From the sequence record MH706966: DNA of 54,655 nt; one strand, 5' to 3'. Position numbers and translations under genes: made by a program. This document shows, one piece after another, positions 7,737-22,808 of this stretch. The notes under the pieces were generated by a model. That model did no database searches and was not told where the DNA came from. It saw only the letters and a list, made by a program, of their open reading frames with translations. Position 1 is the stretch's first letter. Each line of letters opens with the position of its first letter. Source of the DNA: Enterobacteria phage mEp021.

Positions 7737-9224
7737 TCATTGGCAGAAAACAATCTCTTTAAATGCTTTTTCTACCATGTCGAATACTTCCGGCCTGTAA
7801 TAGAAAAACTCATTGCTTCCATCAAATTTCACAGGAAAATTGATTTTATAATTACTAAAAGCCTTATGCATCGTGTTTTCTAGTTTATGTATACTTTCGG
7901 TTGGCCCTTCTAACGTTTTCACGACACACAAATCAGGGATTCTAACACCTGCTTTATGTGCGCTTTTTAATATCCGATTTCTTCGCTCGTTCTCCTTAAC
8001 ACTTACGCCGATTTTCATTTGTGTAGGTAATTCCAGATCATCAACCATGATGTAAAGTTTGCCATAATCATAACGAAAGAAACCGTATTTAGCGCATTTT
8101 TGGCAACCCCTACCGCGCTTAAGTTCTCTAGGTCTAACCGACCACTTATGATTACAAACCTTACAGCGGCATGATACTTTTTTATTTACGTTCGTTATTT
8201 CTCCCAGCACTTCAACATCAGGATTAACCTTAGCAATAGCTAAAACATGTTCTTCGTGCGTTATAATCTTCCCAGCACATTTTGGGCAACCCTTCCCGCG
8301 TTTAAGGTTGCTAGGAGTAACCGACCACTTATGATTACAAACCTTACAGCGGCATGATACTTTTTTATCTACGTTCGTTATTTCTCCCAGCACTTCAACA
8401 TCAGGATTAACCTTAGCAATAGCTAAAACATGTTCTTCGTGCGTTATAATCTTCCCAGCACATTTTGGGCAACCCTTACCGCGCTTAAGGTGGTTAGGTC
8501 TAACTGACCATTCATGATCACAAACCTTGCAGCGGCATAATACTTTTTTGTCGCCACCTGTAATTTCACCCAGCACTTCAACATCAGGATTAACCTTCGC
8601 AATGGCAGCAATTTGTTTATAATGTGATAGTCTTAGTTTTTGTGCAATTTTCACACATTTACATTTCGGGCAACCGCTCCCGTGTTTAAGGGCGTCAGGC
8701 GTAGCCGACCATACACGATCACAAATCTTGCAGCGGCATAATACTTTTGTTCTGCTATTAACAATTTTCCCCAGCACTTCAACATCAGGATTAATTCTTG
8801 AGATGGCGGCGATCTGTTCTTCGTGTGATAATCTTTTTGGCCCTTGCTTTAACATTGCGCATTTCGGGCAACCATTCCCGCGTTTAAGGTTGCTAGGAGT
8901 AACCGACCACTCATGATCACAAACCTTGCAGCGGCATAATACTTTTGTGCTGTTATTTATTATTTCCCCCAACACTTCAACATCAGGATTAATTTTAGCA
9001 ATAGCCGCAATTTGTTCTTCGTGGGATAGCCTTGCGTTCCCAGCGCATTTTGGGCAACCTTTACCGTGTTTAAGGTTGCTAGGAGTAACCGACCATTCAT
9101 GATCACAAACCTTGCAGCGGCATAATACTTTTTCCCGGCTTCCAGTAATTTCTCCCATCACTTCAACATCAGGATTAACTTTCGCAATAGCTGCAACCTG
9201 TTCTTCGTGTGTTAGCTTGCACAT
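7737..9224 (-). CDS. Protein with six tandem Zn-ribbon modules and a C-terminal GIY-YIG-like (T5orf172-type) domain
   Basis: 495 aa; six ~55-aa repeats HEEQVAAIAKVNPDVEVLGEI...C.C..C.H.W...P..L..G.GCPKC; C-terminal GKLYIMVDD...KIGVS...RRNRIL pattern; repeats 5 and 6 are near-identical at DNA level. Confidence 0.55.
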   Translation of the reverse strand: MCKLTHEEQVAAIAKVNPDVEVMGEITGSREKVLCRCKVCDHEWSVTPSNLKHGKGCPKCAGNARLSHEEQIAAIAKINPDVEVLGEIINNSTKVLCRCKVCDHEWSVTPSNLKRGNGCPKCAMLKQGPKRLSHEEQIAAISRINPDVEVLGKIVNSRTKVLCRCKICDRVWSATPDALKHGSGCPKCKCVKIAQKLRLSHYKQIAAIAKVNPDVEVLGEITGGDKKVLCRCKVCDHEWSVRPNHLKRGKGCPKCAGKIITHEEHVLAIAKVNPDVEVLGEITNVDKKVSCRCKVCNHKWSVTPSNLKRGKGCPKCAGKIITHEEHVLAIAKVNPDVEVLGEITNVNKKVSCRCKVCNHKWSVRPRELKRGRGCQKCAKYGFFRYDYGKLYIMVDDLELPTQMKIGVSVKENERRNRILKSAHKAGVRIPDLCVVKTLEGPTESIHKLENTMHKAFSNYKINFPVKFDGSNEFFYYRPEVFDMVEKAFKEIVFCQ

Positions 9225-9600: not shown

Positions 9601-10608
9601 TCAAATAGCGCCTGCGCGTGTATCGCGTAGCGTTTTTGGTTTAAGCAGGAAATCAAGTGTCGCAGTGAAGCCATTGCCGAAGTAAAAGTCTGAAGCCGTG
9701 TTTTTAAACGCCTCAAAGTAAGCAATAAAGCCAGTGATGCTTTTGTCTTTCAGGTAGTCAGTGAACGCATAGATCTTGCGTTCAAGATCCCGATCCAGTT
9801 CAGCAGGTGGCAACAGGCCATCAAACGTGCTGTTAAATGCTTCCACTACGTCGGCAGCGTTTGCAGTGACTGACAGTTTGCTCCATTGTTCAGCATCAGC
9901 CAGATACCCATCGAATTTAGTTACCCGGCAAATGTTAACAGGCTTAGGCACTCCACCACGGCCACGCCATTGCGTTAAAGCCCACTCAATCACTAATGTG
10001 ATCTCACCCTCCGTATACGCTTTGCGTGTTTTTGTTTCTGTCAGTAGTTCTACGAATGGCTTTGCATCACGACATTTGCATCCTGCCTTGTCGTTGTAGA
10101 AGGACAGGCAACGCAATGCCGCCAGATTAACCTCCCGATCTTCTTCGCTGATAGACTCGTCTTTTTCCAATACACGAAGTGTATTGTTTTTAATGTTCTC
10201 TTTACTGGTTATATATGACTGATTAGGGTTGCTCTCTGCCACTACCCCCGGTTGCTTTGTGCCACTACCCTGGTTGCTCTCTGCCACTACCCCCGGTTGC
10301 TTTGTGCCACTACCTGACAGTGAAGGTAAAACGATTACATAGAAATTGCTCGTTTGTTCTTTCCCTCCTATTAAATATCGAGGCTGTTTTAGTAATAAAC
10401 CTTTTTTGCAAAGAGCCTCGATTGCTCTCATTGCCGTACTTTTGTTTATTTCGCATTGCTTTGCTATGTGCTGGTAAGAAGGGTAGCACTCTCCGTTATC
10501 GTTAGCGTTATCAGCCAACTTTAACAGCACAAGTTTGTGCATTGGGTTGCCGACTTCAGTATGAAAGACTTCAACCATTAGCCGCATACTCATAAGCATT
10601 AACCTCAT
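9601..10608 (-). CDS. Replication initiator, phage O-like
   Basis: N-terminal winged-HTH pattern KLVLLKLADNANDNGECYPSYQHIAKQCEINKSTAMRAIEALCKKGLL; iterons embedded in the coding sequence; true start probably the internal ATG at 10593 with a gaggt SD. Confidence 0.7.
   Translation of the reverse strand: MRLMLMSMRLMVEVFHTEVGNPMHKLVLLKLADNANDNGECYPSYQHIAKQCEINKSTAMRAIEALCKKGLLLKQPRYLIGGKEQTSNFYVIVLPSLSGSGTKQPGVVAESNQGSGTKQPGVVAESNPNQSYITSKENIKNNTLRVLEKDESISEEDREVNLAALRCLSFYNDKAGCKCRDAKPFVELLTETKTRKAYTEGEITLVIEWALTQWRGRGGVPKPVNICRVTKFDGYLADAEQWSKLSVTANAADVVEAFNSTFDGLLPPAELDRDLERKIYAFTDYLKDKSITGFIAYFEAFKNTASDFYFGNGFTATLDFLLKPKTLRDTRAGAI
10227..10314. repeat. Four tandem ~22-bp iterons (ggttgctYtSTgccactaccc), candidate replication origin
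   Basis: Direct repeats at 10227-10249, 10250-10271, 10272-10294, 10295-10314, inside the O-like gene (encoding SGTKQPGVVAESN twice). Confidence 0.6.
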
Positions 10609-10614
10609 GACGAA

Positions 10615-10860
10615 CTAAAACATTAACTGATAAACACAGAAGAAGCCTGGAAGCTGGCTAATCAGGCCGCTTCTTTTCAGTTGATGCAGTGCAGAGATAG
10701 TGTCACGTAACGAAATTTCGCACATTTCCGCGATCTCTTCCGGAGTTACTTCGCTTTTGCCGTTGCATCCGGCCTTTGTTGCCAGTGCAATTAAGATAAG
10801 TTTTTGCACATGATCATTGTTATTCAGGCGAATATCAAAAGCCTTGCGAACGTAATACAT
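10615..10860 (-). CDS. Small winged-helix DNA-binding protein, first gene of the leftward operon (Cro-like by position)
   Basis: 81 aa; KLILIALATKAGCNGKSEVTPEEIAEMCEISLRDTISALHQLKRSGLI resembles the N-terminal domain of the O-like protein; divergent from cI; SD aggaga. Confidence 0.45.
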   Translation of the reverse strand: MYYVRKAFDIRLNNNDHVQKLILIALATKAGCNGKSEVTPEEIAEMCEISLRDTISALHQLKRSGLISQLPGFFCVYQLMF

Positions 10861-11166
10861 GTTTCTTTCTCCTATGGTTAGAGTGAACGCGCGGGCGGGT
10901 ATCCAATTAGCATTAGATAGCAGTGACTGACCGCTGAACAGATCCCGCCGTTGCGTGATATTTGTTTTTCGCTTCGCAGCGACACCGGATTTTTAAAGAG
11001 CTTTTAAGGTATGTACCTTTTGTGCTTTCCCTTATCTTTTTTCTTGCATCATTGCAACTATGGCCTTACCTTGTCAGCAAGTTTACAGAATGGAGCTTTA
11101 AGATCAAGGCTTGAAAAATACGTTTTGTGACTTGCATCAAAATTTTTTAGGTTATAGGGTAGCGAT
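10861..11166. promoter_or_regulatory. Divergent promoter/operator region between the Cro-like gene and cI
   Basis: 306-bp non-coding spacer with a 14-bp palindrome aaggtatgtacctt (11007-11020), an inverted repeat ttgcatcattgcaa (11044-11057) and a second cttgcatca (11129-11137). Individual operators not assigned. Confidence 0.5.
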
Positions 11167-11814
11167 ATGAAAACAAAATGGTATGACTTAGCAAAACAAC
11201 TCATGCGGGCGCAGGGCATGAGCCAGGATTCATTGGCTGATCTTATGGGGATCACAAAAGGCGGCCTTTCTCACTGGCTGAACGGTAGACGTGAGCCAAA
11301 TCTTGAAGATATTGCGCGTATCATGCGGGCGCTTGGGCGTCGGCAGTTCACTGTCACACATGATGGAATGGTCATTGATGATTCTGTTTCTAACACGTTG
11401 CCGGGAGCGCCGCCGCGTGATTTAGGTAGTTACCCGGTTGTTGACTGGAAGGATGTAGTAAACAATATGGAAGATGCAAGGCGATCAACATTACCACACG
11501 TTACGACTAGCGTTATTTGTTCAGATGATAGTTATTGGCTGGTAGCTAAAGGCGAATCAATGAACGCGCCGCAAGGATTGAGTATACCAGCGGGGACGAT
11601 GATACTTGTCGATCCGCACGCGCCAGCTATTGACGGCAAACTGGTTATAGCCCAATTGGAGGAGGGGCAGGTACCGACGTTTAAACAGTTGATTATTGAT
11701 GGAGGTCAAAGACTTTTGCGTTCGCTCAATCCGCTGTATCCGCCAATCCCTATGAATCCAGAATCAAAAATTATAGGCGTGGTGGTTGATGCGAAGATCG
11801 TAAACCTGCCATAA
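11167..11814 (+). CDS. cI: CI-type repressor (HTH plus S24 LexA-like peptidase domain)
   Basis: 215 aa; N-terminal HTH QDSLADLMGITKGGLSHWLNGRREP; C-terminal AKGESM...DGKLVIAQL S24 autocleavage pattern. Confidence 0.85.
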   Translation: MKTKWYDLAKQLMRAQGMSQDSLADLMGITKGGLSHWLNGRREPNLEDIARIMRALGRRQFTVTHDGMVIDDSVSNTLPGAPPRDLGSYPVVDWKDVVNNMEDARRSTLPHVTTSVICSDDSYWLVAKGESMNAPQGLSIPAGTMILVDPHAPAIDGKLVIAQLEEGQVPTFKQLIIDGGQRLLRSLNPLYPPIPMNPESKIIGVVVDAKIVNLP

Positions 11815-11818
11815 ACAT

Positions 11819-11845
11819 TAGCCGCCGGATGGCGGCTTTTCTTTG
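11819..11845 (+). terminator. Rho-independent terminator after cI
   Basis: Hairpin gccgcc-ggat-ggcggc followed by ttttctttg. Confidence 0.7.
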
Positions 11846-12223
11846 CCGTAAAAACACCAAAACGTAAACAGAAAACATGTTTTATCATTTAAATATCAAT
11901 GAGATAGAAAATTTTTTAAAAAAGTATACAAAATGGATTGACTCTGTATATCACGGGGCGTATATTGCGAATCAAAGGAAGGAGGCAGGAAACAAAAAAG
12001 CACCTTCCAGGCACTTTAAAAAATCAGGCTTAACACCTTGTCAACCGTGGAGTAACTCCCCGATGGGGGACCGAAAGCGGCACTGATAACAAGGCGCATG
12101 GGGTGTTTAAAGCGTTACACCCCCCACGAAACCGCACGCAAGGCGACGAGTCAGCTTGCTTGGAGTGAGCAAGGTCACACCGGAAACGGCGATGATTGCG
12201 GGATTAGTTGAAAGATGTTAAGC

Positions 12224-12261
12224 CGCTCATTAACAATCTGGTCAGCCGCTGGAAGTGCGGC
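12224..12261 (+). promoter_or_regulatory. nutL-like site: boxA-like cgctcattaacaa plus boxB-like hairpin gccgc-tggaagt-gcggc
   Basis: Matches the boxA consensus cgctctttaacaa at 11 of 13 positions; hairpin 8 nt downstream; lies just upstream of the N-like gene. Confidence 0.45.
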
Positions 12262-12317
12262 AATTAACGAAGATGATTTTTTATTAAGTATCATCAAGGA
12301 TATAAGGAGATCAGATC

Positions 12318-12608
12318 ATGACAGTTACAATCATGTATGGCAAATGTGACAGTAAACTGAATGCCAGGGAACGCAGAAGAATAAAAAGAGAAAACGAAAG
12401 AAAATCATCACCTGCAATTAATAAAACGGACAATGTGGATAAAGCCATTCGCTTTGCAAACGAGGAAAGATGCAAACCCAATGGCATTAAAGAACGTCGC
12501 AAAGGAGCGGTAAAATGGTATACGGAAAATGAAAGCGGCAACTACTACCACGCAACGCAACCACGCCAGTTAGGGGAAAAACCCCTTGATAAAGTCCGCT
12601 ACCATTAA
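12318..12608 (+). CDS. N-like transcription antiterminator (arginine-rich motif protein)
   Basis: 96 aa; N-terminus MTVTIMYGKCDSKLNARERRRIKRENERK resembles the P22 gene 24 / lambda N arginine-rich RNA-binding motif as recalled; SD aaggaga. Confidence 0.55.
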   Translation: MTVTIMYGKCDSKLNARERRRIKRENERKSSPAINKTDNVDKAIRFANEERCKPNGIKERRKGAVKWYTENESGNYYHATQPRQLGEKPLDKVRYH

Positions 12609-12638
12609 TACAAAATGTAAATAATCGGAGGTGACATT

Positions 12639-12761
12639 ATGGTTATCGAGGCGCTCAAATTCAAACTTGCGGTAGCGGAAATGCTTCATGATGCCGAAAT
12701 GTGGAGCGCCGCGAATAAAGCCTTATACGTAGTGTTAACAGCGAAGGAGATCAAAGAGTGA
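12639..12761 (+). CDS. Hypothetical small protein (40 aa)
   Basis: Strong SD ggaggtga; stop overlaps the erf start. Confidence 0.35.
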   Translation: MVIEALKFKLAVAEMLHDAEMWSAANKALYVVLTAKEIKE

Positions 12762-13399
12762 AAACAGAGTTACACAAAAAGCTGTGGACGATTCAACAAA
12801 CGTTGAATGCGCCGAAAAATCAGCGTAATAATTTCGGTGGGTACAATTACAGGTCGGCGGAGGATATTTTAGAGGCGGTTAAGCCACTGCTTCAAAATAT
12901 CACGCTGACTGTTAGCGATGAAATCGTCCTGATCGGCAATCGCTATTATGTGAAGGCCACAGCTACGCTAAGCGACGGTGAAGATGAAATTGCGGTAACT
13001 GCTTACGCCAGGGAAGAAGAAAGCAAGAAGGGAATGGACGCAAGCCAGTTAACTGGCGCGACATCAAGTTATGCGCGGAAATACGCGTTGAACGGATTGT
13101 TCTGTATTGATGATGCGCGAGATCCTGATACTGACGCATACGCGAAGCAGACTGGCCAGCAGCCTCGCCAGCAGAAAAACACACCAAAACAACAACCACA
13201 GCAGCAGAAAGCGCCGCCAAATCCTGACGAGGTGTTAGCGCGTTTCTGTGATGCAGCAGCGAAAGCGCCTGACGCTAACAAGTTGCGCGAGATATTCGGG
13301 AAGTGCTGGAAGCTACTTCCTAAAGATTCAGAACAGCAACAGAAAGCTAAAGACGTTTATGATATTCGCTTAAAAGAGCTTAACGGGGAGATCGGTTAA
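12758..13399 (+). CDS. erf: Erf-family single-strand annealing protein
   Basis: 213 aa; N-terminus LNAPKNQRNNFGGYNYRSAEDILEAVKPLL resembles P22 Erf as recalled; GTG start with SD gaaggaga. Confidence 0.75.
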   Translation: MKTELHKKLWTIQQTLNAPKNQRNNFGGYNYRSAEDILEAVKPLLQNITLTVSDEIVLIGNRYYVKATATLSDGEDEIAVTAYAREEESKKGMDASQLTGATSSYARKYALNGLFCIDDARDPDTDAYAKQTGQQPRQQKNTPKQQPQQQKAPPNPDEVLARFCDAAAKAPDANKLREIFGKCWKLLPKDSEQQQKAKDVYDIRLKELNGEIG

Positions 13400-13809
13400 T
13401 GAGCTTAAATTCAATTACGCTTGGCGGTAACGTTGGGAATGATTGCGAAACGAGATTTACATCAAACGGGAAAGCAATCGGTAGTTTCTCACTTGCTGTA
13501 CAACAAGGTTACGGTGATAACAAACGTGCAATGTGGGTAACGTGTTTAATATTAGGTGATAGAGCAACAAAATTAGCCGAACATATTAGGAAGGGGGATC
13601 ACCTGGTTGTAAGTGGTCGGTTGGATGTTAGGGATTGGGAAGGGCAGGACGGAAGAAAAAACAAATCAGTTGAGGTTATCGTGTCAGATATTGAATTTAT
13701 GAGCGGAAATAAACGCAGCGACCAAAACCAAAACAGACAACGCGAACAGCAACAACAATATAACCAGGATAACGGCGGGCAGGACTGCGACCAAGATATC
13801 CCATTTTAG
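13399..13809 (+). CDS. ssb: Single-stranded DNA-binding protein
   Basis: 136 aa; OB-fold pattern, glutamine-rich linker and C-terminal acidic tail ending DIPF. Confidence 0.85.
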   Translation: MSLNSITLGGNVGNDCETRFTSNGKAIGSFSLAVQQGYGDNKRAMWVTCLILGDRATKLAEHIRKGDHLVVSGRLDVRDWEGQDGRKNKSVEVIVSDIEFMSGNKRSDQNQNRQREQQQQYNQDNGGQDCDQDIPF

Positions 13810-13838
13810 CGAATATAATCAATTAGTTAGGTGTTATT

Positions 13839-14363
13839 ATGAGTAATGCCGAACCATTGAAAATATGTTGTACTTGCGGGGCACTATTGCCCCTTTCTTG
13901 TTTTCATAACGATAAGGGCAAGAAAGACGGCAAATCATGTAGATGTAAAGAGTGCGCCAAAAAAGCCACTAGAGAATGGAGTGAAGCGAATAAAGAAAGA
14001 AAAAAGAAAAATGATAGCGAATACGCAAAAACAGATAAAGCCAAAAAGAAAAGGGAAGAATACAGAAAATCGCAAAGAGGTAAAGAGATCGCGGCTGAAT
14101 CAAGAAAAAAATGGAATGAGAAAAACCCTAAAAAATACCACGCCCAAGTGATGGCACATAACGCTATCCGCGACGGCAAATTAATTAAACAACCTTGCGA
14201 AGTATGCGGCAGAGATGACCGCGTACACGCGCACCATTGCGATTATGATAAGCCGCTCGATGTTATGTGGCTTTGCCCGATATGCCATCGAGAGTGGCAC
14301 AACGAACACGGTGAAGGAGCTAATGCACACGACGAGGTATTAAGTGGTGAGCGAATATCTTAA
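13839..14363 (+). CDS. Zinc-binding protein with HNH-like C-terminal motif and lysine-rich centre
   Basis: 174 aa; CCTCG...C.C.EC then HAHHCDYDKPLDVMWLCPICHREWH. Confidence 0.5.
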   Translation: MSNAEPLKICCTCGALLPLSCFHNDKGKKDGKSCRCKECAKKATREWSEANKERKKKNDSEYAKTDKAKKKREEYRKSQRGKEIAAESRKKWNEKNPKKYHAQVMAHNAIRDGKLIKQPCEVCGRDDRVHAHHCDYDKPLDVMWLCPICHREWHNEHGEGANAHDEVLSGERIS

Positions 14364-14628
14364 AGCACCGCCACCGCCACCGCGAACAAAAGAACAAGTA
14401 TTAAAAGAAGCCCGTGATCATATCGATCATGGGCTTTTTTTATGCGGAACGGCGGCGGATCGAATGGCGAAAAGATTTAGTGACCTGTACGCAAAACAAA
14501 TATGGTTCGACAACTGGCAGGCAAGTTTTTACCCACTGCAAAGAAAACCGGATATGCATTGGCCTGAATATGTCGATCCACGTATGCGCAAATATCGCGG
14601 GCGTATGGGCCAGGTTATTAACGATTAA
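14344..14628 (+). CDS. Hypothetical protein (94 aa)
   Basis: ORF in the rightward early operon. Confidence 0.4.
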   Translation: MVSEYLKAPPPPPRTKEQVLKEARDHIDHGLFLCGTAADRMAKRFSDLYAKQIWFDNWQASFYPLQRKPDMHWPEYVDPRMRKYRGRMGQVIND

Positions 14629-14642
14629 TGAGGTATTAAATC

Positions 14643-14867
14643 ATGATCGAAGATAAAGAAGTTGACGTAGAAATTCCTGACAGCGCTGATGAGCTTATCA
14701 CTTTCGGCGGCGGCCTGTATGAGTTCGATACATCGGCTGGGTGGGTTGATAAGTGGCCTCAGCCTACTCGCCAGGAATTAATTAACCGCAAATCATTCGG
14801 CGAAGATGCAGAACGCCTTGCTAATAACAAGTGGCTTAACAAGTTCATTGCGGAGGGTGATAAATGA
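14643..14867 (+). CDS. Hypothetical acidic protein (74 aa)
   Basis: ORF with SD; D/E-rich. Confidence 0.45.
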   Translation: MIEDKEVDVEIPDSADELITFGGGLYEFDTSAGWVDKWPQPTRQELINRKSFGEDAERLANNKWLNKFIAEGDK

Positions 14868-14977
14868 ACCTTGCAAAAATTGCCGCATTGCTTGCGGCTT
14901 TGTCTATCGCTGTGCTGTATCTCAGCGTATCGCTTTATATAACGGTAGCGATCATTAAACTCATTGCTAACATGTGA
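14864..14977 (+). CDS. Small membrane peptide (37 aa)
   Basis: MNLAKIAALLAALSIAVLYLSVSLYITVAIIKLIANM; ATGA overlap with the upstream stop; SD ggaggg. Confidence 0.45.
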   Translation: MNLAKIAALLAALSIAVLYLSVSLYITVAIIKLIANM

Positions 14978-14985
14978 GGTTAATC

Positions 14986-15105
14986 ATGAAAGTCGGTAAG
15001 GATATTGTGACGGTCGCGTTTTGCATTATTTGCTTCCTATTTGTGGTTGTGTTTTGTGGCGGATTTGCAGCGCTGGTTAGCTTTATTTTCAGGGGATTGT
15101 TGTGA
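14986..15105 (+). CDS. Small membrane peptide (39 aa)
   Basis: MKVGKDIVTVAFCIICFLFVVVFCGGFAALVSFIFRGLL; SD tgaggt; overlaps the next gene start. Confidence 0.45.
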   Translation: MKVGKDIVTVAFCIICFLFVVVFCGGFAALVSFIFRGLL

Positions 15106-15377
15106 TGAAAACATGGGATGCAAAGACTGGTGATCTTGTTGTATTGCCTGAATATCGTGATGACCCTGGCCTGGTTGTACTGAATAAGATGTATAACGAT
15201 CTAGATCGCCCGCTAGTGGTTAAATACCTGGACGGAACAATCATAGAACCGCGCTACTTTGATGATATTGAACTGAAGGCCCGCAACGTTCGCGTTAAGC
15301 CGTTCCGGGCTTATGTTGAGGACCACTGGCGGAAATTGTTCGCCGGACTGAATGGGATGTACGGCGTATGGCTATAA
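15102..15377 (+). CDS. Hypothetical protein (91 aa)
   Basis: ORF in a tightly packed operon. Confidence 0.45.
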   Translation: MMKTWDAKTGDLVVLPEYRDDPGLVVLNKMYNDLDRPLVVKYLDGTIIEPRYFDDIELKARNVRVKPFRAYVEDHWRKLFAGLNGMYGVWL

Positions 15378-15559
15378 AGGAAGTAAAGGTCAAAGACCTG
15401 AAAGGCGGTGAGCGATTAAAGGCGTGGTGGGGTCGCGAGTTTACAGCCGCTGCCTTCATGATCATGCAGGGCGGGGAGGTCGTTATATACGATGAAGACC
15501 TGAAGGAAGTCGGCAGGTGGCATCTTGAGCAATATATCGAGGTGTTAGATGAAAATTAA
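15368..15559 (+). CDS. Hypothetical protein (63 aa)
   Basis: ORF in a tightly packed operon. Confidence 0.4.
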   Translation: MAIKEVKVKDLKGGERLKAWWGREFTAAAFMIMQGGEVVIYDEDLKEVGRWHLEQYIEVLDEN

Positions 15560-15881
15560 ATTCCATAAAGGTTATGATTCGGTCACTAACAAGTTATCGC
15601 TATTTATTGAGTTCGAGCGCCGGATCGTGGTTGTTCCTTATTCTCGGCGCTTTAATGATGCGGCAGGGCGGCGGCAATTCGCGTTAGACATGTTGTTACG
15701 TGGCTGCGGCCTTATGCGCCCGCTATCTGATTTGAAACGGATGATGCCGGGATCGTTCGGTCAGATTGATGAAATAGAAATAAGCCCGGAAGAACTGAAG
15801 CGGGAGCGTGATTTATTCCTTTCAAGCGAAGGAAACCCGTTTAATTCAGAAACAGAAATGAAATGGCATCACCCACTATAA
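15549..15881 (+). CDS. Hypothetical protein (110 aa)
   Basis: ORF in a tightly packed operon. Confidence 0.45.
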   Translation: MKIKFHKGYDSVTNKLSLFIEFERRIVVVPYSRRFNDAAGRRQFALDMLLRGCGLMRPLSDLKRMMPGSFGQIDEIEISPEELKRERDLFLSSEGNPFNSETEMKWHHPL

Positions 15882-15894
15882 AAGGATAAATATC

Positions 15895-16515
15895 ATGAAC
15901 GACATTAAAACAGCTTATTCACTAGGCAGCGATGGCATGTTAATCACTCGCTACACTGAAGACGCAAGTTTTCATGAAGTGGAAACGAAGGATTATCACG
16001 AAGTATTAAAAGATATGGAAGCTGGCGCGTATGACGCAGATTTGAATCTGGCTTTACAGATTGTTGATATTATGATGGACGCGTCGATCCGCGATTATGT
16101 GTCTTTAAACGCTGAAGAAAAAACGGCTGTGGCTCGTTATGTCTTCTGCCTAACTTTCGTGAAACGAATGGAAGAGGAATATGGGCGCGTGCCAGTGCCG
16201 GAAGAAATTGACCCGCTGGCGTTCGGAAGCGCTGTTATTTTCCCGTTAGATGAAAATCATACTGGTAGCGTTGCGCTGCATTCTATGCGCGGCGTAATGA
16301 AATGCATCTTTGAGGCTAAAGCGCTACAGAAGTGCATTGATGAAGGGCATGACGAAGAAGACGTAAAAGCGATCATGCCGTTGTTTTATGGCGAAATGGT
16401 TGGGAACAACATGCGCGCAAATGATTTAGGTGTGCAGGCTGCCATAACTGTACTTAACGAAGCGCGGAAAATGTCGCAGCCAATGCCGGAACCTGAAAAA
16501 CGTGTACTGCATTAA
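15895..16515 (+). CDS. Hypothetical acidic protein (206 aa)
   Basis: Long ORF with SD; markedly D/E-rich. Confidence 0.5.
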   Translation: MNDIKTAYSLGSDGMLITRYTEDASFHEVETKDYHEVLKDMEAGAYDADLNLALQIVDIMMDASIRDYVSLNAEEKTAVARYVFCLTFVKRMEEEYGRVPVPEEIDPLAFGSAVIFPLDENHTGSVALHSMRGVMKCIFEAKALQKCIDEGHDEEDVKAIMPLFYGEMVGNNMRANDLGVQAAITVLNEARKMSQPMPEPEKRVLH

Positions 16516-16614
16516 CATCGTGATTGCGATCACATAAATATACATTTTGTGTTGTGATCGCATATCCGTTTTGTAAACTGAAATCAAAAGGTTTACGGCA
16601 CGGAGGAAAACAAG

Positions 16615-16833
16615 ATGGCAAGCGAATTAATGCTTTATTGTGTTGAAGGTGGCGTGGGACATGATGCCTACGTCGCCGGGAAAAGCTATCCAGCAGATGA
16701 AGTGCTTTCTAATATGCACTTCCGGGAAAATGAAAACCAGGTGTCTGTGTGGAAGCGATGCGTTGATGGCATTGAGGTAGTTAGCCTCGAAAGATATTTG
16801 GGTAAATTTGACTACGCATTGATCGAGGCTTAA
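16615..16833 (+). CDS. Hypothetical protein (72 aa)
   Basis: SD cggagg upstream. Confidence 0.45.
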   Translation: MASELMLYCVEGGVGHDAYVAGKSYPADEVLSNMHFRENENQVSVWKRCVDGIEVVSLERYLGKFDYALIEA

Positions 16834-16931
16834 CTATGGACGAAACATTGCTATTCATGTGCATTTGCTGGGGTTTTATTGCCTTATGCCTGTTTATCAG
16901 GTGGTTTATTGAATACCATATGAGGTGATAT

Positions 16932-17126
16932 ATGGAACAGAAAACTGATTATAGAATACCTGACAACCTGAAGTTAGTTGGCATTGGTTTTGGTTGTCGT
17001 TTTGTATCTGACGCAAACGGGGCGATTTATTTAGTGCGCATCATTGATGGCGTTCAACATATAAGAAGGCTAGGACTTTACATCAAAGCATTTAGAAGAG
17101 GTTATTTGAAAACTCATGAAATTTAA
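16932..17126 (+). CDS. Hypothetical protein (64 aa)
   Basis: ORF with SD gaggtga. Confidence 0.4.
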   Translation: MEQKTDYRIPDNLKLVGIGFGCRFVSDANGAIYLVRIIDGVQHIRRLGLYIKAFRRGYLKTHEI

Positions 17127-17319
17127 ACAGTATAAAGAATGGAAGATTCCAGAAGAAGCGACAAAGGCAGCGCCCGGAATTTTTTCGGGCGTTTATTTTT
17201 ATATGGGCGGTAAATGGTATTTCGGCAGCAGGCCGGATCACTATTATCAAGAATTATGCAAATCTCACACATGGGACATTAATGAACGCGTGCAAGGCGG
17301 TGTAATAGACGAGGTTTAA
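17116..17319 (+). CDS. Hypothetical protein (67 aa)
   Basis: ORF overlapping its neighbours by a few nt. Confidence 0.4.
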   Translation: MKFKQYKEWKIPEEATKAAPGIFSGVYFYMGGKWYFGSRPDHYYQELCKSHTWDINERVQGGVIDEV

Positions 17320-17320
17320 A

Positions 17321-17557
17321 ATGATTAATGGTTTTTTAAGCTGGTTAAGAGTGTGGTTTTTTGCCACGCTTTTCGTTTTTTTGGCGTTCAGCGGTGTCAT
17401 TGTCATATTTACGCTGGCGATGATGTTCATTACATGGTCAGTACCTGAATTTAACAATCTTGGAAGTATTTTTGCTGTCGCCCGCGCCATGTTTGCTTGT
17501 AGCGCATTTGTTGGTTTTTGTTGGAGTGTTTCGCCTGATTGGGATGATGAATGGTGA
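17321..17557 (+). CDS. Small membrane protein (78 aa, two predicted TM helices)
   Basis: Hydrophobic segments FFATLFVFLAFSGVIVIFTLAMMFI and FACSAFVGFCW. Confidence 0.45.
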   Translation: MINGFLSWLRVWFFATLFVFLAFSGVIVIFTLAMMFITWSVPEFNNLGSIFAVARAMFACSAFVGFCWSVSPDWDDEW

Positions 17558-17561
17558 TCCT

Positions 17562-17795
17562 ATGGCCTTGTTCAATATGTCAGAACTGCAATTCAACGCC
17601 GTAAAAGCTGCCGCCCGCGCTGCACTTTCTGCTTGCAAAGCGGAGGTAGAGAAAAACGGCTACAGCGATAAAGCCACGCGGCTGATATTAGAAAAGCATT
17701 ATCGCAAGGTCGCCCCACTAATCAGCATTGAGCGCTTTGTGTGGTTGGTGGGGTATTTAAACAACCGTTGGGGGACGGAACAAGATTATTTCTAA
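17562..17795 (+). CDS. Hypothetical protein (77 aa)
   Basis: Internal ATG start chosen to avoid overlap with the upstream membrane-protein ORF. Confidence 0.4.
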   Translation: MALFNMSELQFNAVKAAARAALSACKAEVEKNGYSDKATRLILEKHYRKVAPLISIERFVWLVGYLNNRWGTEQDYF

Positions 17796-17804
17796 GGGGG
17801 CGTA

Positions 17805-18344
17805 ATGAAAAATGATTTTGGAGGCAGCCACACTCCTAAGGAAATTAAAGATCTATGGCAGACGCCTAAACCAGTTTTCAGAGGAATGGACCGCGAATTT
17901 GAATTTGTCGCTGACGTGGCGGCAAACAAGGAAAATGCGCTAGTTCCTCGGTATATAACCGAAGAAATGGACACGTTGCATTATCCGTGGGGAGCTGTGG
18001 CAATGCCTGGTGAGTATGTCTGGCTTAATCCGCCATATTCTAAACCGGGGCCATTCGTTGAGAAGGCGGCATTAGAACATCAACGAAATCACATTGGCTG
18101 TGTAATGCTGTTGCCCGCTGACATTTCTGTTAGCTGGTTTATGAACGGCGTGGATACGGCAAACGAATGCCGATTAATCACGCGCGGGCGGCTGGCGTTT
18201 ATCAATGCTGCGACTGGTAAGCCAGTAAGCGGAAACAATAAAGGGAGCTTGTTTTTGATCTGGCATCCACGGTGCAGACATGAATGTATTTTTACACACA
18301 TAACACGTAAAGAGCTATACGCAAGAGGTGCAGATAATGACTAG
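17805..18344 (+). CDS. dam: Phage-type DNA N6-adenine methyltransferase (Dam-like)
   Basis: 179 aa; WQTPKPVF...DVAANKENALVPRYIT...WLNPPYS pattern of the phage Dam family; SD aaggggg. Confidence 0.75.
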   Translation: MKNDFGGSHTPKEIKDLWQTPKPVFRGMDREFEFVADVAANKENALVPRYITEEMDTLHYPWGAVAMPGEYVWLNPPYSKPGPFVEKAALEHQRNHIGCVMLLPADISVSWFMNGVDTANECRLITRGRLAFINAATGKPVSGNNKGSLFLIWHPRCRHECIFTHITRKELYARGADND

Positions 18345-18834
18345 TGCAGCAGATTTACTACGAATCGCAGCGGAAACAATTGAGCAAAGAGGTAAACAAA
18401 ACGGCTACGACAGAAAAGAGGAAAAATCAGCGCCAAAAATAGCCACTATATACAACGCTAAGAAGGGCGCAAATTTAACCCCACTTGATGTATGGGATCT
18501 GATGATTTGTCTTAAGGAGGCGCGTTTAGAGGCTATTTTGGTTAATGGCAGCGATCCCACTGACACTTTGGTTGACCTAATCAGCTACAGCGCACTAAAA
18601 GCTGAGCAAATATTGAATGATCTGGATGAAGAGTTAAAGAAAAATCAGTTCACTGCCGCCAATATTAATGATGGAATAATAAATGACGCAGCAATAACAA
18701 GCTGTAAGGGATTGCCGCCTTCAATGCTTAAACCTCAGTGTGGCTGTATTTCAAATCGGCTTGATTTGAGTTTTGACAGATCTGAAGCTATTCGCGACAA
18801 GAGGTATGACCCAAATGAAAAAGGTGACAATTGA
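18337..18834 (+). CDS. Hypothetical protein (about 165 aa)
   Basis: ORF with SD aagagg; no motif recognised. Confidence 0.45.
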   Translation: MTSAADLLRIAAETIEQRGKQNGYDRKEEKSAPKIATIYNAKKGANLTPLDVWDLMICLKEARLEAILVNGSDPTDTLVDLISYSALKAEQILNDLDEELKKNQFTAANINDGIINDAAITSCKGLPPSMLKPQCGCISNRLDLSFDRSEAIRDKRYDPNEKGDN

Positions 18835-19318
18835 CAGGTTATTGGCCTGCGTTTATGTCGCCGTTTTCGTGATCATCAACCTAATTGTTAACCATTGCGG
18901 CCCGTGGGTGATTCCTATCACTACGGTAGCCGCTGTGTGTGTCAATATGATGATCCGCGACTTCCTGTTATATGACGGCGGTATCAAGTGGTCGGCGACA
19001 ACATGCGCCGCCGCTGGCGCAATCACTGTGCTGATAAATTACGACGCCGGAATGGTAGCGATCGCGTCATTTGTTGCGGTTGTTTCCGGTGCACTTATTT
19101 CTGGCGGCGTTTACCGGGTTTTACCTGGTGACTTTGATTCAAAACGATGGCCTGCAAATATAGCGTCAGCAATAGGCGATGCGTTGATTTTCCCTACGCT
19201 ATCGTTTATGGCATTCATGCCGGAAATATCAGCAATGCAATTCATATCCAAAATGGCGGCGGTAACGGTGATCACTATCATCATGCGCCGCTATTTTACG
19301 TTTGAGGGTAGAAAATGA
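18806..19318 (+). CDS. Multi-pass membrane protein (possibly VUT/YhhQ-like transporter; start uncertain)
   Basis: Four or five hydrophobic segments; loose resemblance to YhhQ-type proteins from memory only. Confidence 0.4.
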   Translation: MTQMKKVTIDRLLACVYVAVFVIINLIVNHCGPWVIPITTVAAVCVNMMIRDFLLYDGGIKWSATTCAAAGAITVLINYDAGMVAIASFVAVVSGALISGGVYRVLPGDFDSKRWPANIASAIGDALIFPTLSFMAFMPEISAMQFISKMAAVTVITIIMRRYFTFEGRK

Positions 19319-20073
19319 GCAGGGGTAAACATTGGTTTAATAATTGGCTTAGAAATTGGGTCGTTTGGTCGTTGTACGACGGCAGCGGGTACGCCGTCAA
19401 AGATTGGGCGGAAGCAGGATATAAGTGCTATTGCTTCAACTATGACGGCGCAAATCACGGCGATTATGAAGGCGTTAAAATCATTCATCCAAATATTGAA
19501 TACGTTAACGTATGGATTGACAGTCACTTCCTGGTGATGTTCTCGCCTGAACTGTCAGTTTACCCAGATCCTGATATTATCCTGGGCTTCCCGCCGTGCG
19601 ACGATCTCGCCGTGTCTGGCGCTCGCTGGTTCGCTGATAAACGGAAAAAAGATCCTGACTTCCAGGTGAAGGCGGCGAATAGCGCAAAACTGGTAGAAAA
19701 ACTGGCGGATATGCACAACGTGCCGTGGATGGTGGAAAATCCGGTGGGAGCACTGTCAACGCTATGGCGCAAACCTGATTTTATTTTCAACCCTTGCGCT
19801 TACGGTGGCTACCTGCCGGAAGACGACAAACATCCTGCTTTCCCTGATGTTTACCCTGCGCGCGACGCGTATACAAAGAAAACTTGCATATGGTGCGGCA
19901 ACGGATTCAAACAGCCGCTTTTTAGACCTGTAGATCTTAACTCTGGCGATAACCCTGGGTGGGCGAAAACAGGAGGCAGGACGAAACGAACAAAGATGAT
20001 ACGCTCACTAACTCCGCGCGGCTTTGCCCGTGCTGTATTCATGGCTAACCATGACCGCGTTTTACCGGACTGA
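19315..20073 (+). CDS. Small DNA C5-cytosine methyltransferase-like protein
   Basis: 252 aa; LYDGSGY (motif I-like), GFPPCDDLAVSG (PC motif, with PCD rather than PCQ), MVENPVG (ENV motif). Confidence 0.45.
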   Translation: MSRGKHWFNNWLRNWVVWSLYDGSGYAVKDWAEAGYKCYCFNYDGANHGDYEGVKIIHPNIEYVNVWIDSHFLVMFSPELSVYPDPDIILGFPPCDDLAVSGARWFADKRKKDPDFQVKAANSAKLVEKLADMHNVPWMVENPVGALSTLWRKPDFIFNPCAYGGYLPEDDKHPAFPDVYPARDAYTKKTCIWCGNGFKQPLFRPVDLNSGDNPGWAKTGGRTKRTKMIRSLTPRGFARAVFMANHDRVLPD

Positions 20074-20170
20074 AATTTACAAAATGGCGTCATTGCGTGA
20101 TGTGGATCACATAATGGCGCTATTCACCTTGTTCTGATGTATCCATTTTGTATACTTCAAACAAGCAAAA

Positions 20171-20183
20171 TGCTCTTTAAAAA
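20171..20183 (+). promoter_or_regulatory. Second boxA-like element (tgctctttaaaaa)
   Basis: 12 of 13 match to the boxA consensus tgctctttaacaa; intergenic, upstream of the nin-like genes and Q; no clear boxB hairpin. Confidence 0.3.
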
Positions 20184-20232
20184 TCCGGCAGCGCTGAAAT
20201 GCGTAGAAATCACCTGAAAAGGAGAGAGCATT

Positions 20233-20409
20233 ATGCCTTTTAATAATTACCAATGGCATGACGACTATGAACGAGAAAGCGTCATGCGTGCAATGTGCAA
20301 TGTATGCAGCACGAAGAAAGGAGACTGCAACGAGTGCAACGAATGTTTAGATCATTGGCTAAGGGCCGGACACGCCGAAAGGCTGAACGAAACAGAAAAT
20401 CAAAAATAA
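20233..20409 (+). CDS. Small Cys-rich protein (58 aa), possibly NinF-like
   Basis: Strong SD aaaaggagagag; CNVCSTKKGDCNECNEC; same size and position as lambda NinF; below the ORF-track cut-off. Confidence 0.45.
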   Translation: MPFNNYQWHDDYERESVMRAMCNVCSTKKGDCNECNECLDHWLRAGHAERLNETENQK

Positions 20410-20423
20410 TCGGGGTGATTTTT

Positions 20424-21029
20424 ATGCAGAACCCTAAAAAACCAATACGACGCCGTTGCAAATGCTGCGGCGTTTTTTTTGAGCCTAAATATCACAATCA
20501 AACGTGGTGCAGTGATGAATGTCTGGAAGAACTGAAGTTTGACCAGCTATGCCGCGACCGAGAAAAGGCTATGAAGGCTATGGAACGGAAGAAACGCCGC
20601 GACAGCCAGCGTGAGGAACGCAACCGGAAACGTAAACAGTTAAATCCGCGCAGCTACTGGATTAAACAGGCGCAAAACGTGTTTAACGCATATATTCGCG
20701 AACGTGACGCAGGACAGCCGTGTATATCTTGCGGGACTTATTATTACGAACAATGCGGCGCTGATGCTGGACACTGGCGCACAGTAGCGGCAGCCGGACA
20801 CCTTCGCTTTAACGAGGATAACGTAAACCTACAATGCCGACATTGCAATCAGGTATTAGACGGCAATGTAGAGTTATACAGAATAAATTTAATAAAAAAA
20901 ATAGGATTAGAAAGGGTGGAGGCATTAGAAAATAATAACGAGACTCACAAATGGACGATAGAAGAATGTAAGGAAATCATAAAAGTCTATCAGGCTAAAT
21001 TGGACGCCTTAAGGAGAAAGGCGGCATGA
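20424..21029 (+). CDS. ninG: NinG/Rap-family recombination protein
   Basis: RSYWIKQAQNVFNAYIRERD...PCISCGT...AGHWRT...LRFNEDNVNLQCRHCNQ...WTIEECKEI closely parallels lambda NinG as recalled; start at the internal ATG with SD cggggtga. Confidence 0.85.
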   Translation: MQNPKKPIRRRCKCCGVFFEPKYHNQTWCSDECLEELKFDQLCRDREKAMKAMERKKRRDSQREERNRKRKQLNPRSYWIKQAQNVFNAYIRERDAGQPCISCGTYYYEQCGADAGHWRTVAAAGHLRFNEDNVNLQCRHCNQVLDGNVELYRINLIKKIGLERVEALENNNETHKWTIEECKEIIKVYQAKLDALRRKAA

Positions 21030-21433
21030 ATGAATATTCTTTTAGCCTGCCTTACCCGCCATCGAACAATCGCTATTACCGACATTCTCGCGGTTTTCAC
21101 TATATTAGCAAAGTGGGGAAGGAATACAGGGAACAAGTAAGAGACATCATCGAGCTATTAAATTTAAACATCAACCTATCTTGCCGACTGGCAATAACTA
21201 TTCATGCCGCGCCGCCTGATAACCGGATCAGAGATCTGGATAATATCCCAAAATGCCTTTTTGATAGCCTTACTTACGCCGGATTCTGGACCGACGACGG
21301 ACAAATCGATTCTATAAAAATTGTTCGCTGCCGGAAGGTGAAAGGCGGGCGATTGTTTATTAAGGTGCGCGAGCGCGGCGACCTGTTACCGGATATTGGC
21401 GAATACGAAACTAATATATGGGGTGAGAAATGA
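21026..21433 (+). CDS. rusA: RusA-family Holliday junction resolvase
   Basis: 135 aa; LPYPPSNNRYYR N-terminal signature and conserved acidic residues. Confidence 0.8.
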   Translation: MNEYSFSLPYPPSNNRYYRHSRGFHYISKVGKEYREQVRDIIELLNLNINLSCRLAITIHAAPPDNRIRDLDNIPKCLFDSLTYAGFWTDDGQIDSIKIVRCRKVKGGRLFIKVRERGDLLPDIGEYETNIWGEK

Positions 21434-21612
21434 AAAACGAAATTAAAGATCTGCAAATAGATATTCAGCGCGACGAGCTTGATTTAGCTACAGTCAGGCA
21501 AATCCAGGCTTTCCACATGAGAGAATTGCTTGCGCTGAAAGAGCTTGAAAGAAAGTTGGTCCAGTCAATATCTGATCGCAAAAGACTGGTTGCGCGTTAC
21601 GGGGGTAAATAA
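21430..21612 (+). CDS. Hypothetical small protein (60 aa)
   Basis: ORF between rusA and Q. Confidence 0.35.
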   Translation: MKNEIKDLQIDIQRDELDLATVRQIQAFHMRELLALKELERKLVQSISDRKRLVARYGGK

Positions 21613-22334
21613 TGAATTTGGAATCTATTCTTAAATTCCATTTCCCAAAGTCACCGCGTTTGTCAGATGAAAGCCGTGGAACATCACCTGATGCACTTAA
21701 TACTACTGATGCACTAACCGCCGCAGGTATGGCGCAATCTCGCGTAGAGCTTGGATATAGCGCTTTTTTAGGGAAGATGGAACTATCACAAGCCGAAAAA
21801 CATAAGGCCGTAGTTTTGCTTATAGAGCGTTTAAAGGCTATGGCAAAAGATTATAAATACGTTATGGAACTGGACGAGGCACAACGCAATGATCTCATTA
21901 TTCTTGTTGCCGTTTTTGCGTTTCGGGATTATTGCCAGAGTGCCGCGACGGAAAAAACTTGCATGGAGTGCGGCGGATATAAATTTACGTTTGACGAATA
22001 CGGTGAAAAACACCTTTGTAAAAAATGCAAGGGGCATGGGACAGTTCGCAATCATTGTAAACAATGCAAGGGCCGTGGCGAAGTACCGGACAAAGCAGCC
22101 AGCGAAGCGACGGAAATGCCAGTATTCAAAACGTGCCAGCATTGCGGCGGGCGCGGTTACTCGCGTTTCCCAGTAGATCTTGTTCGGCAGGCGGTTAATC
22201 AGCTTGTTTTCCCTGTAAGCCGATCAACATGGTGGAAGAAATACAGGGTTTTCTATGAAGACGCCATAGTGGAGCTATTCAAAGAAGAATCTCGCGCGGA
22301 AAGCGAAATCAAACGAGTGACACGGGGTGAATAA
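21612..22334 (+). CDS. Q: Late-gene antiterminator Q (lambda Q family)
   Basis: 240 aa; N-terminus LESILKFHFPKSPRLSDESRG...AAGMAQS and Zn-finger CxxC...CxxC region parallel lambda Q as recalled. Confidence 0.7.
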   Translation: MNLESILKFHFPKSPRLSDESRGTSPDALNTTDALTAAGMAQSRVELGYSAFLGKMELSQAEKHKAVVLLIERLKAMAKDYKYVMELDEAQRNDLIILVAVFAFRDYCQSAATEKTCMECGGYKFTFDEYGEKHLCKKCKGHGTVRNHCKQCKGRGEVPDKAASEATEMPVFKTCQHCGGRGYSRFPVDLVRQAVNQLVFPVSRSTWWKKYRVFYEDAIVELFKEESRAESEIKRVTRGE

Positions 22335-22564
22335 TGGAGCTAAAAATCTGGCAGGCTATCGACGTTGTTGATAATGAATTGTCTATGTTCGCCACTAACG
22401 GGAAACGCGTTGTGATCGCTACATGGACTCGTAACCATGATGATATTGCTTTTCGTCGCGCGGCGGCGGAATTGCTTTTCTCTGATGGCGGCTACACGAT
22501 GAACATCGACCAGCTTGCAAGAATGAAAGATGAAAAACTGGTTGATAGCTACACAACTGCTTAA
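22334..22564 (+). CDS. Hypothetical protein (76 aa)
   Basis: ORF directly after Q. Confidence 0.4.
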   Translation: MELKIWQAIDVVDNELSMFATNGKRVVIATWTRNHDDIAFRRAAAELLFSDGGYTMNIDQLARMKDEKLVDSYTTA

Positions 22565-22574
22565 CGGGGTGAAT

Positions 22575-22808
22575 ATGCGTATCTATGAACACAAGCGGGA
22601 TAAAACCCGCTTTTTTGTTCGTGCTGGAGTGGCGTACCAGTATCACGAATGCGGTTACATTGAGGCGCTTGCTTACGATCTGGACTTCGAGCAAGAAAAG
22701 GAATGGTTCGATTTTAAAATTTACCGGAAGCGCAAACCAACGCGCGACGAGCGACACGCTATCCGTGACTTTTTAATCAGCATTGAACGTTGGGAGACAG
22801 AGGAATGA
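22575..22808 (+). CDS. Hypothetical protein (77 aa)
   Basis: Internal ATG with SD acggggtga. Confidence 0.4.
   Translation: MRIYEHKRDKTRFFVRAGVAYQYHECGYIEALAYDLDFEQEKEWFDFKIYRKRKPTRDERHAIRDFLISIERWETEE

Follow-up and report, generated by a model that had tools for sequence, protein, structure and literature searches.

Evidence for a Gp17-type early antitermination system with three nut sites in Enterobacteria phage mEp021

We analysed a stretch of 54,655 nucleotides from Enterobacteria phage mEp021 (sequence record MH706966), called here the window, with attention to a 96-aa open reading frame (ORF) homologous to gp17 of the mEpimmI coliphages and to the boxA-boxB elements (nut sites) that accompany it. 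One of these sites, nutR1, lies just upstream of the gp17 homologue, the second, nutR2, is found 8 kb downstream in the same rightward unit, and the third, nutL, belongs to the leftward operon on the minus strand (coordinates in Table 1). The genome layout is the same as in the published mEpimmI group, and the region is 92-96% identical at the DNA level to Escherichia phages mEp515, mEp010 and MagusPhagus; mEp044, mEp013 and mEp554 also match it, an indel excepted. In our view, the window very probably encodes a system for early processive antitermination, that of an mEpimmI-group coliphage, made up of Gp17 and three nut sites.

The description of the group was taken from Negrete-Mendez et al. 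2025 (PMC11893012). In its passages dealing with this system, the mEpimmI phages are presented as Nus-dependent, non-lambdoid temperate coliphages (for the Nus dependence, Kameyama et al. 1999 is the source given there), and Gp17 of mEp021 as an N-like early antiterminator established by experiment, with Gp17-dependent terminator read-through reported for this phage (both citing Valencia-Toxqui et al. 2023, Arch Virol 168:92). The same passages list three nut sites for Gp17 and place nutL upstream of the repressor gene, nutR1 before gp17 and nutR2 after the methyltransferase gene; R17, R19, R20 and R24 of Gp17 are named as fully conserved. In the supplements of PMC11893012, the nut sequences are not given as text. 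The three nut sites of the window sit at the published positions relative to the repressor gene, gp17 and the methyltransferase gene; in particular, nutR2 follows the methyltransferase ORF 19315-20073 (phrog_757), as published. Because the sites, the upstream promoter-like sites, the terminator-like hairpins and the distal Q gene are all in place, we read the system as the published one, from which it shows no difference of substance. The first-pass annotation of this DNA had interpreted the antitermination switch correctly, but the switch is already published for the mEpimmI phages. The present analysis concerns the nut sites themselves, their strand, number, conservation and covariation, and the family placement of the protein.

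Nut sites in the window and in related phages

The first-pass annotation had pointed to a boxA-like 13-mer followed by a hairpin just upstream of the 96-aa ORF, and both were found where it had placed them: cgctcattaacaa (12224-12236) agrees with the rrn boxA consensus TGCTCTTTAACAA at 11 of 13 positions, and the hairpin at 12245-12261 has a 5-bp stem. A second boxA-like 13-mer, tgctctttaaaaa (20171-20183), agrees with the same consensus at 12 of 13 positions. The 17-mer GCTCTTTAAAAATCCGG occurs exactly at 20172-20188 (+) and at 11001-10985 (-), and with 3 mismatches at 12225-12241, so that three copies with no more than 3 mismatches were observed vs. 0.19 expected by chance, each followed by a short G+C hairpin. 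When we searched for a composite element (a boxA with at most 2 mismatches, a G+C hairpin 5-12 nt later and GNRA in the loop), 3 cases were observed vs. 0.013 expected, and none of the 300 dinucleotide shuffles reached 3.

A nut covariance model was built from 20 distinct site variants. It gave 56.5 bits for nutL, 54.8 bits for nutR2 and 48.1 bits for the full nutR1 (12224-12264), the next best place in the window scoring 9.5 bits. Since the three window sites belong to the training set, the informative result here is that there is no fourth site. The 49 related loci contained 137 model sites in all, never more than three per locus and always at the same three positions. Two further boxA-like 13-mers of the window, at 40016-40028 (-) and 28617-28629 (-), with 2 mismatches each, have no boxB partner and score below 10 bits with the nut model; these are probably chance matches. 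The former runs antisense to a 781-aa ORF (37726-40071).

These data extend the earlier picture of the sites. The agreement of the 13-mer at 20171-20183 with the consensus stood, but the element proved to be more than a boxA, that is, a full nut site with its boxB at 20191-20204. The inventory of the first-pass annotation was thus incomplete: it had overlooked the nutR2 boxB, the complete nutL on the minus strand and an insertion of about 200 nt in the leader of gp17. A promoter-like site at 11077-11048 (-) precedes the newly seen nutL by about 40 nt, and helix-turn-helix (HTH)/replication-type genes (10615-10860 and 9601-10608) follow it downstream.

To follow the boxB hairpins through the group, we compared 43 loci from IMG/VR, three contigs with the most divergent homologues (63-69% identity), and Escherichia coli prophages. 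The nutR1 stem differs from genome to genome (GCCGC/GCGGC, UGCAC/GUGCA, GCAC/GUGC, GCUC/GAGC, UCGC/GCGA, GCUAC/GUAGC), while the flanking C-U-G…G and the loop persist. When 15 distinct hairpins were aligned, 82.7% of the cells were paired, and the stem covariation reached 0.41 vs. 0.10 in shuffles (none of 500 attained the observed value) and at most 0.105 with slid partners. One position of the boxB stem shows as many as five pair types (UA, CG, GC, AU and GU), and the outer G·U pair of the nutR2 boxB is replaced by C-G or A-U in relatives. The nutR1 of STEC307, which was outside the model training, scored 39.4 bits with the stem GCUAC/GUAGC. The stem variants keep base pairing, thus indicating a constraint at the RNA level. 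The conservation of the hairpin in related phages, on which the first-pass annotation had staked its proposal, is therefore clear, and it comes with compensatory changes in the stem.

The loops follow a common pattern. A 7-nt boxB loop, as noted earlier for this locus, is correct for the nutR1 of the main clade, to which UGGAAGU is specific (one relative has C for the last U), but it does not hold elsewhere, since every other site or relative has U-GNRA-U/A. The loops found there are U-GAAA-U/A, U-GCGA-A/U, U-GUGA-A and U-GCAA-U, all of them, judged by sequence, GNRA tetraloops closed by U·U or U-A. The 7-nt loop itself contains GGAA, which is of the GNRA type, and its sequence suggests a GGAA tetraloop closed by U·G with one bulged base. 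If boxB is a true GNRA tetraloop, the arginine-rich motif of Gp17 would read a 4-nt loop directly, and not a pentaloop with an extruded base.

The gp17 homologue and the weighing of alternatives

The 96-aa protein contains R17, R19, R20, R21 and R24, is 100% identical to the proteins of mEp515 and mEp044, and shares 93-100% identity with its counterparts in six named mEpimmI phages. It is basic, with an isoelectric point of 9.96 and 10 lysines plus arginines in residues 1-30. Among 15 diverse family members, N15, A16, R17, R20 and R24 do not vary, and R19 and R21 hardly do. The Gp17 family comprises 52 clusters, none of which bears a name and all of which come from E. coli or metagenomes, and gp17 is present in 35 of the 5426 complete E. 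coli genomes. A tblastn search of 50,697 phage records (E up to 1) returned only the six members of the group, with no bridge to P22 or lambda.

A family relationship was suggested by profiles. PHROG 271 ("anti-termination protein N-like") matches residues 2-95 of the protein with E 1.1e-10, and the same profile also takes lambda N (4e-23), P22 gp24 (7e-40) and divergent Gp17 homologues (4e-9 and 1e-8). The hhalign comparison with the P22 gp24 family gave E 2.6e-4 over residues 2-55, a segment that includes the N-terminus, the arginine-rich motif and a V-x-KAI motif, and BLASTP against P22 gp24 showed 11 of 20 identical residues over the first 20 (E 0.008 in a single comparison). The AlphaFold model is of low confidence (mean predicted local distance difference test score 59.9), with better support only for a helix at residues 16-30, which covers the arginine-rich motif; such a predicted picture is as expected for an N-like protein. 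Taken together, PHROG 271, the alignment with P22 gp24 and the published Gp17 bear out the earlier assignment of an N-terminal arginine-rich motif of the lambda N/P22 gene 24 type. An alignment with N-family proteins, which had been proposed as a check, is obtained with PHROG 271 and with hhalign, the Pfam family N_peptide staying below its cut-off.

Several observations nevertheless weigh against the assignment of the protein and its site to an N/nut system. N_peptide (PF25694, the P22 gp24 family) matched the 96-aa protein with E 0.012 and 16.6 bits, under the 27.9-bit cut-off, and it was sub-threshold in 13 of the 15 diverse family members as well (best E 4.8e-4). The hhalign probability against the P22 gp24 family was 43%, and BLASTP found no similarity between the 96-aa protein and lambda N. 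When compared with the sequences in the PDB, the family profile had no match, and the protein alone gave noise only, with no N-peptide among the hits. As to the RNA, the nutR1 boxA is off the consensus at the fifth core base (GCUCAUUA; two relatives have AUUCUUUA), and in a 51-nt context a competing structure takes the place of the nutR1 hairpin as the minimum-energy fold, the z-score being not significant. The hairpin folded alone has -10.1 kcal/mol, accounts for 97% of the ensemble (z -2.1) and is kept in the fold of the whole leader, so the fold prediction that had been suggested for this site succeeds for the hairpin alone and for the whole leader but fails in the 51-nt context. In the short-leader relatives, the nutR1 boxA is a perfect TGCTCTTTAACAA (13 of 13), about 45 nt from the promoter.

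The position of the gene and an N-terminal arginine-rich motif are common to N and Nun, and the resemblance of the protein to authentic N proteins is seen at the profile level only; both would suit a Nun-like exclusion factor as well, which would bind the boxB RNAs of competing phages and arrest their transcription. However, the phage has three boxA-boxB sites of its own on the transcribed strands of both early operons, with stems that covary in all relatives, and such conserved sites are sensible only for a protein that works on the transcripts of its own phage. HK022 Nun carries a penultimate tryptophan, which the C-terminus of the protein here (…DKVRYH) lacks. Moreover, antitermination activity of mEp021 Gp17 is reported in the relevant passages of PMC11893012, and a Nun-like role appears scarcely credible to us.

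Two other explanations concern the sites rather than the protein. Given its agreement with the rrn consensus at 12 of 13 positions, and given that the first-pass annotation reported no hairpin there, the element at 20171-20183 might be a boxA alone, that is, an rrn-type site for NusB/E/G/A that needs no phage protein and shields the long transcript from Rho. We regard this as highly improbable, since the hairpin 20191-20204 does follow, 20 nt from the boxA start and with the same spacing as in the other two sites, its outer pair changes in relatives as described above, and PMC11893012, where it deals with the nut sites, lists this one as nutR2, acted on by Gp17. The identity of the 17-bp block GCTCTTTAAAAATCCGG at two places, along with the fold z-scores of the short hairpins, which are not significant in context, could also be taken to mean that the motifs are protein-binding sites at the DNA level, or chance occurrences, with incidental hairpins. 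This is almost certainly wrong: all three sites are oriented with transcription, the stem changes keep pairing, the loops stay GNRA through four sequences, and shuffles essentially never yield such composite sites.

Gp17-dependent antitermination at three nut sites, the reading that we prefer, would work as follows. Transcription from the early rightward promoter (about 11938-11966) would pass across nutR1 (12224-12261) and then gp17. The N-terminal arginine-rich helix of Gp17 (residues of about 15-30) would bind the boxB hairpin of the nascent RNA, the adjacent boxA would recruit host NusB/NusE, and the complex, together with NusA and NusG, would stay on RNA polymerase. The polymerase modified in this way would read through the terminators of the 10-kb early operon, which includes the recombination, methylase and nin genes, up to Q. 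Being located 8 kb downstream, before the terminator-like site in ninG, nutR2 may serve to load or re-load the complex for the nin/Q segment, and nutL would do likewise for the leftward operon of replication genes. Here we infer which of the terminators the complex overrides, that nutR2 serves for re-loading and how the boxB loop is recognized.

The gene is labelled "anti-termination protein N-like protein" in MagusPhagus and "hypothetical protein" in the mEp records; RefSeq/PGAP and the majority of phage records likewise use the latter name, and the three nut sites carry no annotated RNA feature. Correct naming of the gene and of the nut sites explains how the 10-kb early operon reaches Q. 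What little our analysis adds to the biology in the papers of 2023 and 2025 is the independent support from boxB covariation, the finding that the loops are all of the GNRA type, and the close formal resemblance to P22 gene 24/nutL.

Comparison with classical antitermination systems

The closest classical relative is P22 gene 24 with its nutL. The N-terminus of P22 gp24 is MTVITYGK vs. MTVTIMYGK here, and both proteins belong to PHROG 271. In a manual alignment, the P22 motif A15-K-T-R-R-H-E-R-R23 corresponds to A16-R-E-R-R-R-I-K-R24, with R17, R19, R20 and R24 of the protein here falling on K16, R18, R19 and R23 of P22. As to the RNA, P22 nutL has the form CGCUCUUUAAC-(9 nt)-GCGCUGACAAAGCGC vs. 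UGCUCUUUAAA-(9 nt)-GCGCUGAAAUGCG for nutR2; in both phages the boxA is of the rrn-consensus type, and boxB begins 20-21 nt after the boxA start, the distance being 20 nt in P22 nutL and nutR2 alike, with boxB reading GCGC-U-GACAA-A-GCGC in P22 vs. GCGC-U-GAAA-U-GCG in nutR2. When a nut model made from mEpimmI sites only was run on 5 kb of P22, the annotated P22 nutL was the best match (13.5 bits, E 0.005). The gene set downstream of gp17, which consists of a Kil-like 40-aa ORF, Erf and SSB, with abc2 in relatives, resembles the P22 PL operon, and this makes the name "nutL-like" of the first-pass annotation reasonable by analogy; the element is indeed a nut site, both published and conserved, but the authors of the published work call the site upstream of gp17 nutR1.

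The differences from P22 are also evident. The likeness of the proteins is at the profile level only, and tblastn does not link them. Instead of the GACAA pentaloop of P22, the boxB loop here is the 7-nt UGGAAGU or a GNRA of 4 nt with U·U or U-A on its sides. Finally, there are three sites here, two of them in one operon, and the operon that begins with the N-like gene continues into the nin genes and Q.

Lambda N has in common with the protein here that it is small, basic and largely disordered, is encoded first in an early operon and works with a boxA-spacer-boxB arrangement, and Nus dependence is a further common trait according to the passages of PMC11893012 on this system. The two proteins share PHROG 271 but show no pairwise similarity. 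In lambda, the boxA is CGCUCUUA, boxB lies 16 nt from the boxA start, the loops are the pentaloops GAAAA/GAAGA, and there are two sites only; the lambda nutR boxB is a weak match to the mEpimmI nut model (6.1 bits, E 0.59). The operons are also arranged differently. Unlike in lambda, one rightward unit here (12318-22334) contains the N-like gene together with the recombination genes, the nin genes and Q, with the repressor gene on the same strand, whereas the replication-type genes belong to an opposite, nutL-controlled unit (the 9601-11814 region).

HK022 Nun, like the protein here, is an arginine-rich boxB-binding protein encoded at the N position. It terminates transcription on the nut RNA of another phage, and the antitermination of HK022 itself uses put RNAs, whereas the phage here has its cognate nut sites in early operons of its own. 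A resemblance also exists to rrn boxA antitermination (NusB/NusE/SuhB), in that the boxA elements here are close to the rrn consensus (12 of 13 in nutR2 and 13 of 13 in the short-leader nutR1). Unlike in rrn, a covarying boxB hairpin and an arginine-rich protein encoded by the phage go with each boxA here.

The early operons and the gp17 leader

Table 1. Features of the early region, with positions in the window
Feature	Position	Strand	Evidence or remark
gp17 homologue, 96 aa	12318-12608	+	ORF; begins MTVTIMYGKCDSKLNARERRRIKRENERK
Ribosome-binding site AAGGAG	12304-12309	+	8 nt upstream of the gp17 homologue
nutR1 boxA CGCTCATTAACAA	12224-12236	+	11/13 vs. rrn boxA consensus
nutR1 boxB GCCGC-UGGAAGU-GCGGC	12245-12261	+	Folds, stem covariation
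nutR2	20171-20208	+	boxA TGCTCTTTAAAAA (20171-20183), spacer, boxB GCGC-UGAAAU-GCGU (20191-20204); 54.8 bits
nutL	11002-10965	-	boxA AGCTCTTTAAAAA (11002-10990), spacer, boxB UCGCU-GCGA-AGCGA (10982-10969); 56.5 bits
CI-like repressor gene	11167-11814	+	Pfam HTH_3 7e-13, Peptidase_S24 5e-19
Bidirectional terminator-like hairpin	11820-11837	both	Terminator scan; 3' of the repressor gene
Promoter-like TTGACT-17-TATATT	11938-11966	+	10/12 of the sigma-70 consensus; hexamers kept in all aligned relatives
boxA-like relic GCACTTTAAAAAATCAGG	12011-12028	+	Found in 34 loci; no boxB after it
Structured leader domain, about 200 nt	12027-12224	+	Insertion vs. short-leader relatives, between the boxA-like relic and the nutR1 boxA
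Other terminator-like candidates, rightward unit	13878-13893, 14882-14898, 17347-17373, 19111-19131	+	Terminator scan
Terminator-like hairpin, 11-bp stem then T run	17169-17193	+	Strongest between nutR1 and nutR2; candidate antitermination target
Terminator-like hairpin, T8 run	20454-20472	+	Follows nutR2 by about 250 nt, within the 5' part of ninG; T6 of mEp515 is in ninG
Q-type late antiterminator	21612-22334	+	Pfam Antiterm PF03589, E 1e-29; distal end of the rightward unit

Judging from its sequence, the promoter-like site upstream of the leader is likely the promoter from which early rightward transcription reaches nutR1 and gp17. The prediction gave no promoter immediately before nutR2, a site internal to the rightward unit. 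The annotation of mEp515 has the cI repressor and a terminator at the corresponding place, and the terminator-like hairpins found here match T4, T5 and T6, annotated in mEp515 with ARNold; the predicted T4 is located in the gene homologous to the ORF 17116-17319. The boxA of nutR2 had earlier been placed in the rightward unit before the nin-like genes and Q, and this location proved right, the terminator-like site in ninG coming next and then the Q gene.

The ends of the structured leader domain pair as GGCUUAACA/UGUUAAGCC in a closing helix of 9 bp, and the fold of the whole leader has a z-score of -3.6. The domain occurs in 31 of the 35 gp17-carrying E. coli prophages (31 of the 5426 genomes), and only in these prophages. 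It is absent from mEp044, mEp013 and mEp554, and because phages without it are viable, it is dispensable. A hairpin at 12153-12171 shows three swaps that preserve pairing (CG to AU, UA to CG and GC to AU) in the STEC307/RM9245/E21845 lineage; within the main clade, no compensatory change was found in the domain. Rfam gave nothing meaningful, either for the whole window at the gathering thresholds or for the leader at E up to 10, and a search of the domain for a tRNA found none.

Several candidate identities for the leader elements were considered and rejected. The domain is hardly a mobile element, as it is present in a single copy in every genome that has it, and hardly a coding gene, as the variants change the small ORFs non-synonymously. 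Nor does the boxA-like relic qualify as a fourth nut site: no boxB follows it, and its score with the nut model is 5.6 bits (9.3 bits in STEC307).

The leader domain may be a cis-acting RNA, for instance, one that serves as a processing site, modulates the use of nutR1 or regulates how gp17 is expressed. Both this domain and the GNRA-tetraloop boxB lie outside the published description, as far as its passages on the system and its supplements go. That the domain is an uncharacterised cis-acting RNA and, jointly, that the boxB loop is truly a GNRA tetraloop with U·U or U-A as its closing pair is a tentative proposal, which we think rather unlikely to hold in both its parts.

A 6-bp hairpin, GAUGAU…AUCAUC, is seen in the leader fold within 12262-12317 (+), just upstream of the gp17 ribosome-binding site. 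By analogy with the N leader in lambda, it may bear on gp17 translation.

Some features of the neighbouring genes are also worth recording. The hairpin 17169-17193, nearly perfect as an intrinsic terminator, is found inside the coding sequence of the 67-aa ORF 17116-17319 (DUF7274 in relatives). The Q-type protein has a DnaJ-like CxxCxGxG zinc-finger segment before the Antiterm domain (Pfam DnaJ_CXXCXGXG 9e-6, below the cut-off), and its gene is followed by two terminator-like hairpins, at 22451-22471 and 22593-22612. In the leftward operon, downstream of the replication genes, the 495-aa product of an ORF at 7737-9224 (minus strand) consists of six repeats of about 60 aa in tandem and, after them, a distinct domain at the C-terminus; every repeat has two CxxC pairs (…VLCRCKVCDHEWSVTPSNLKxGxGCPKCA…).

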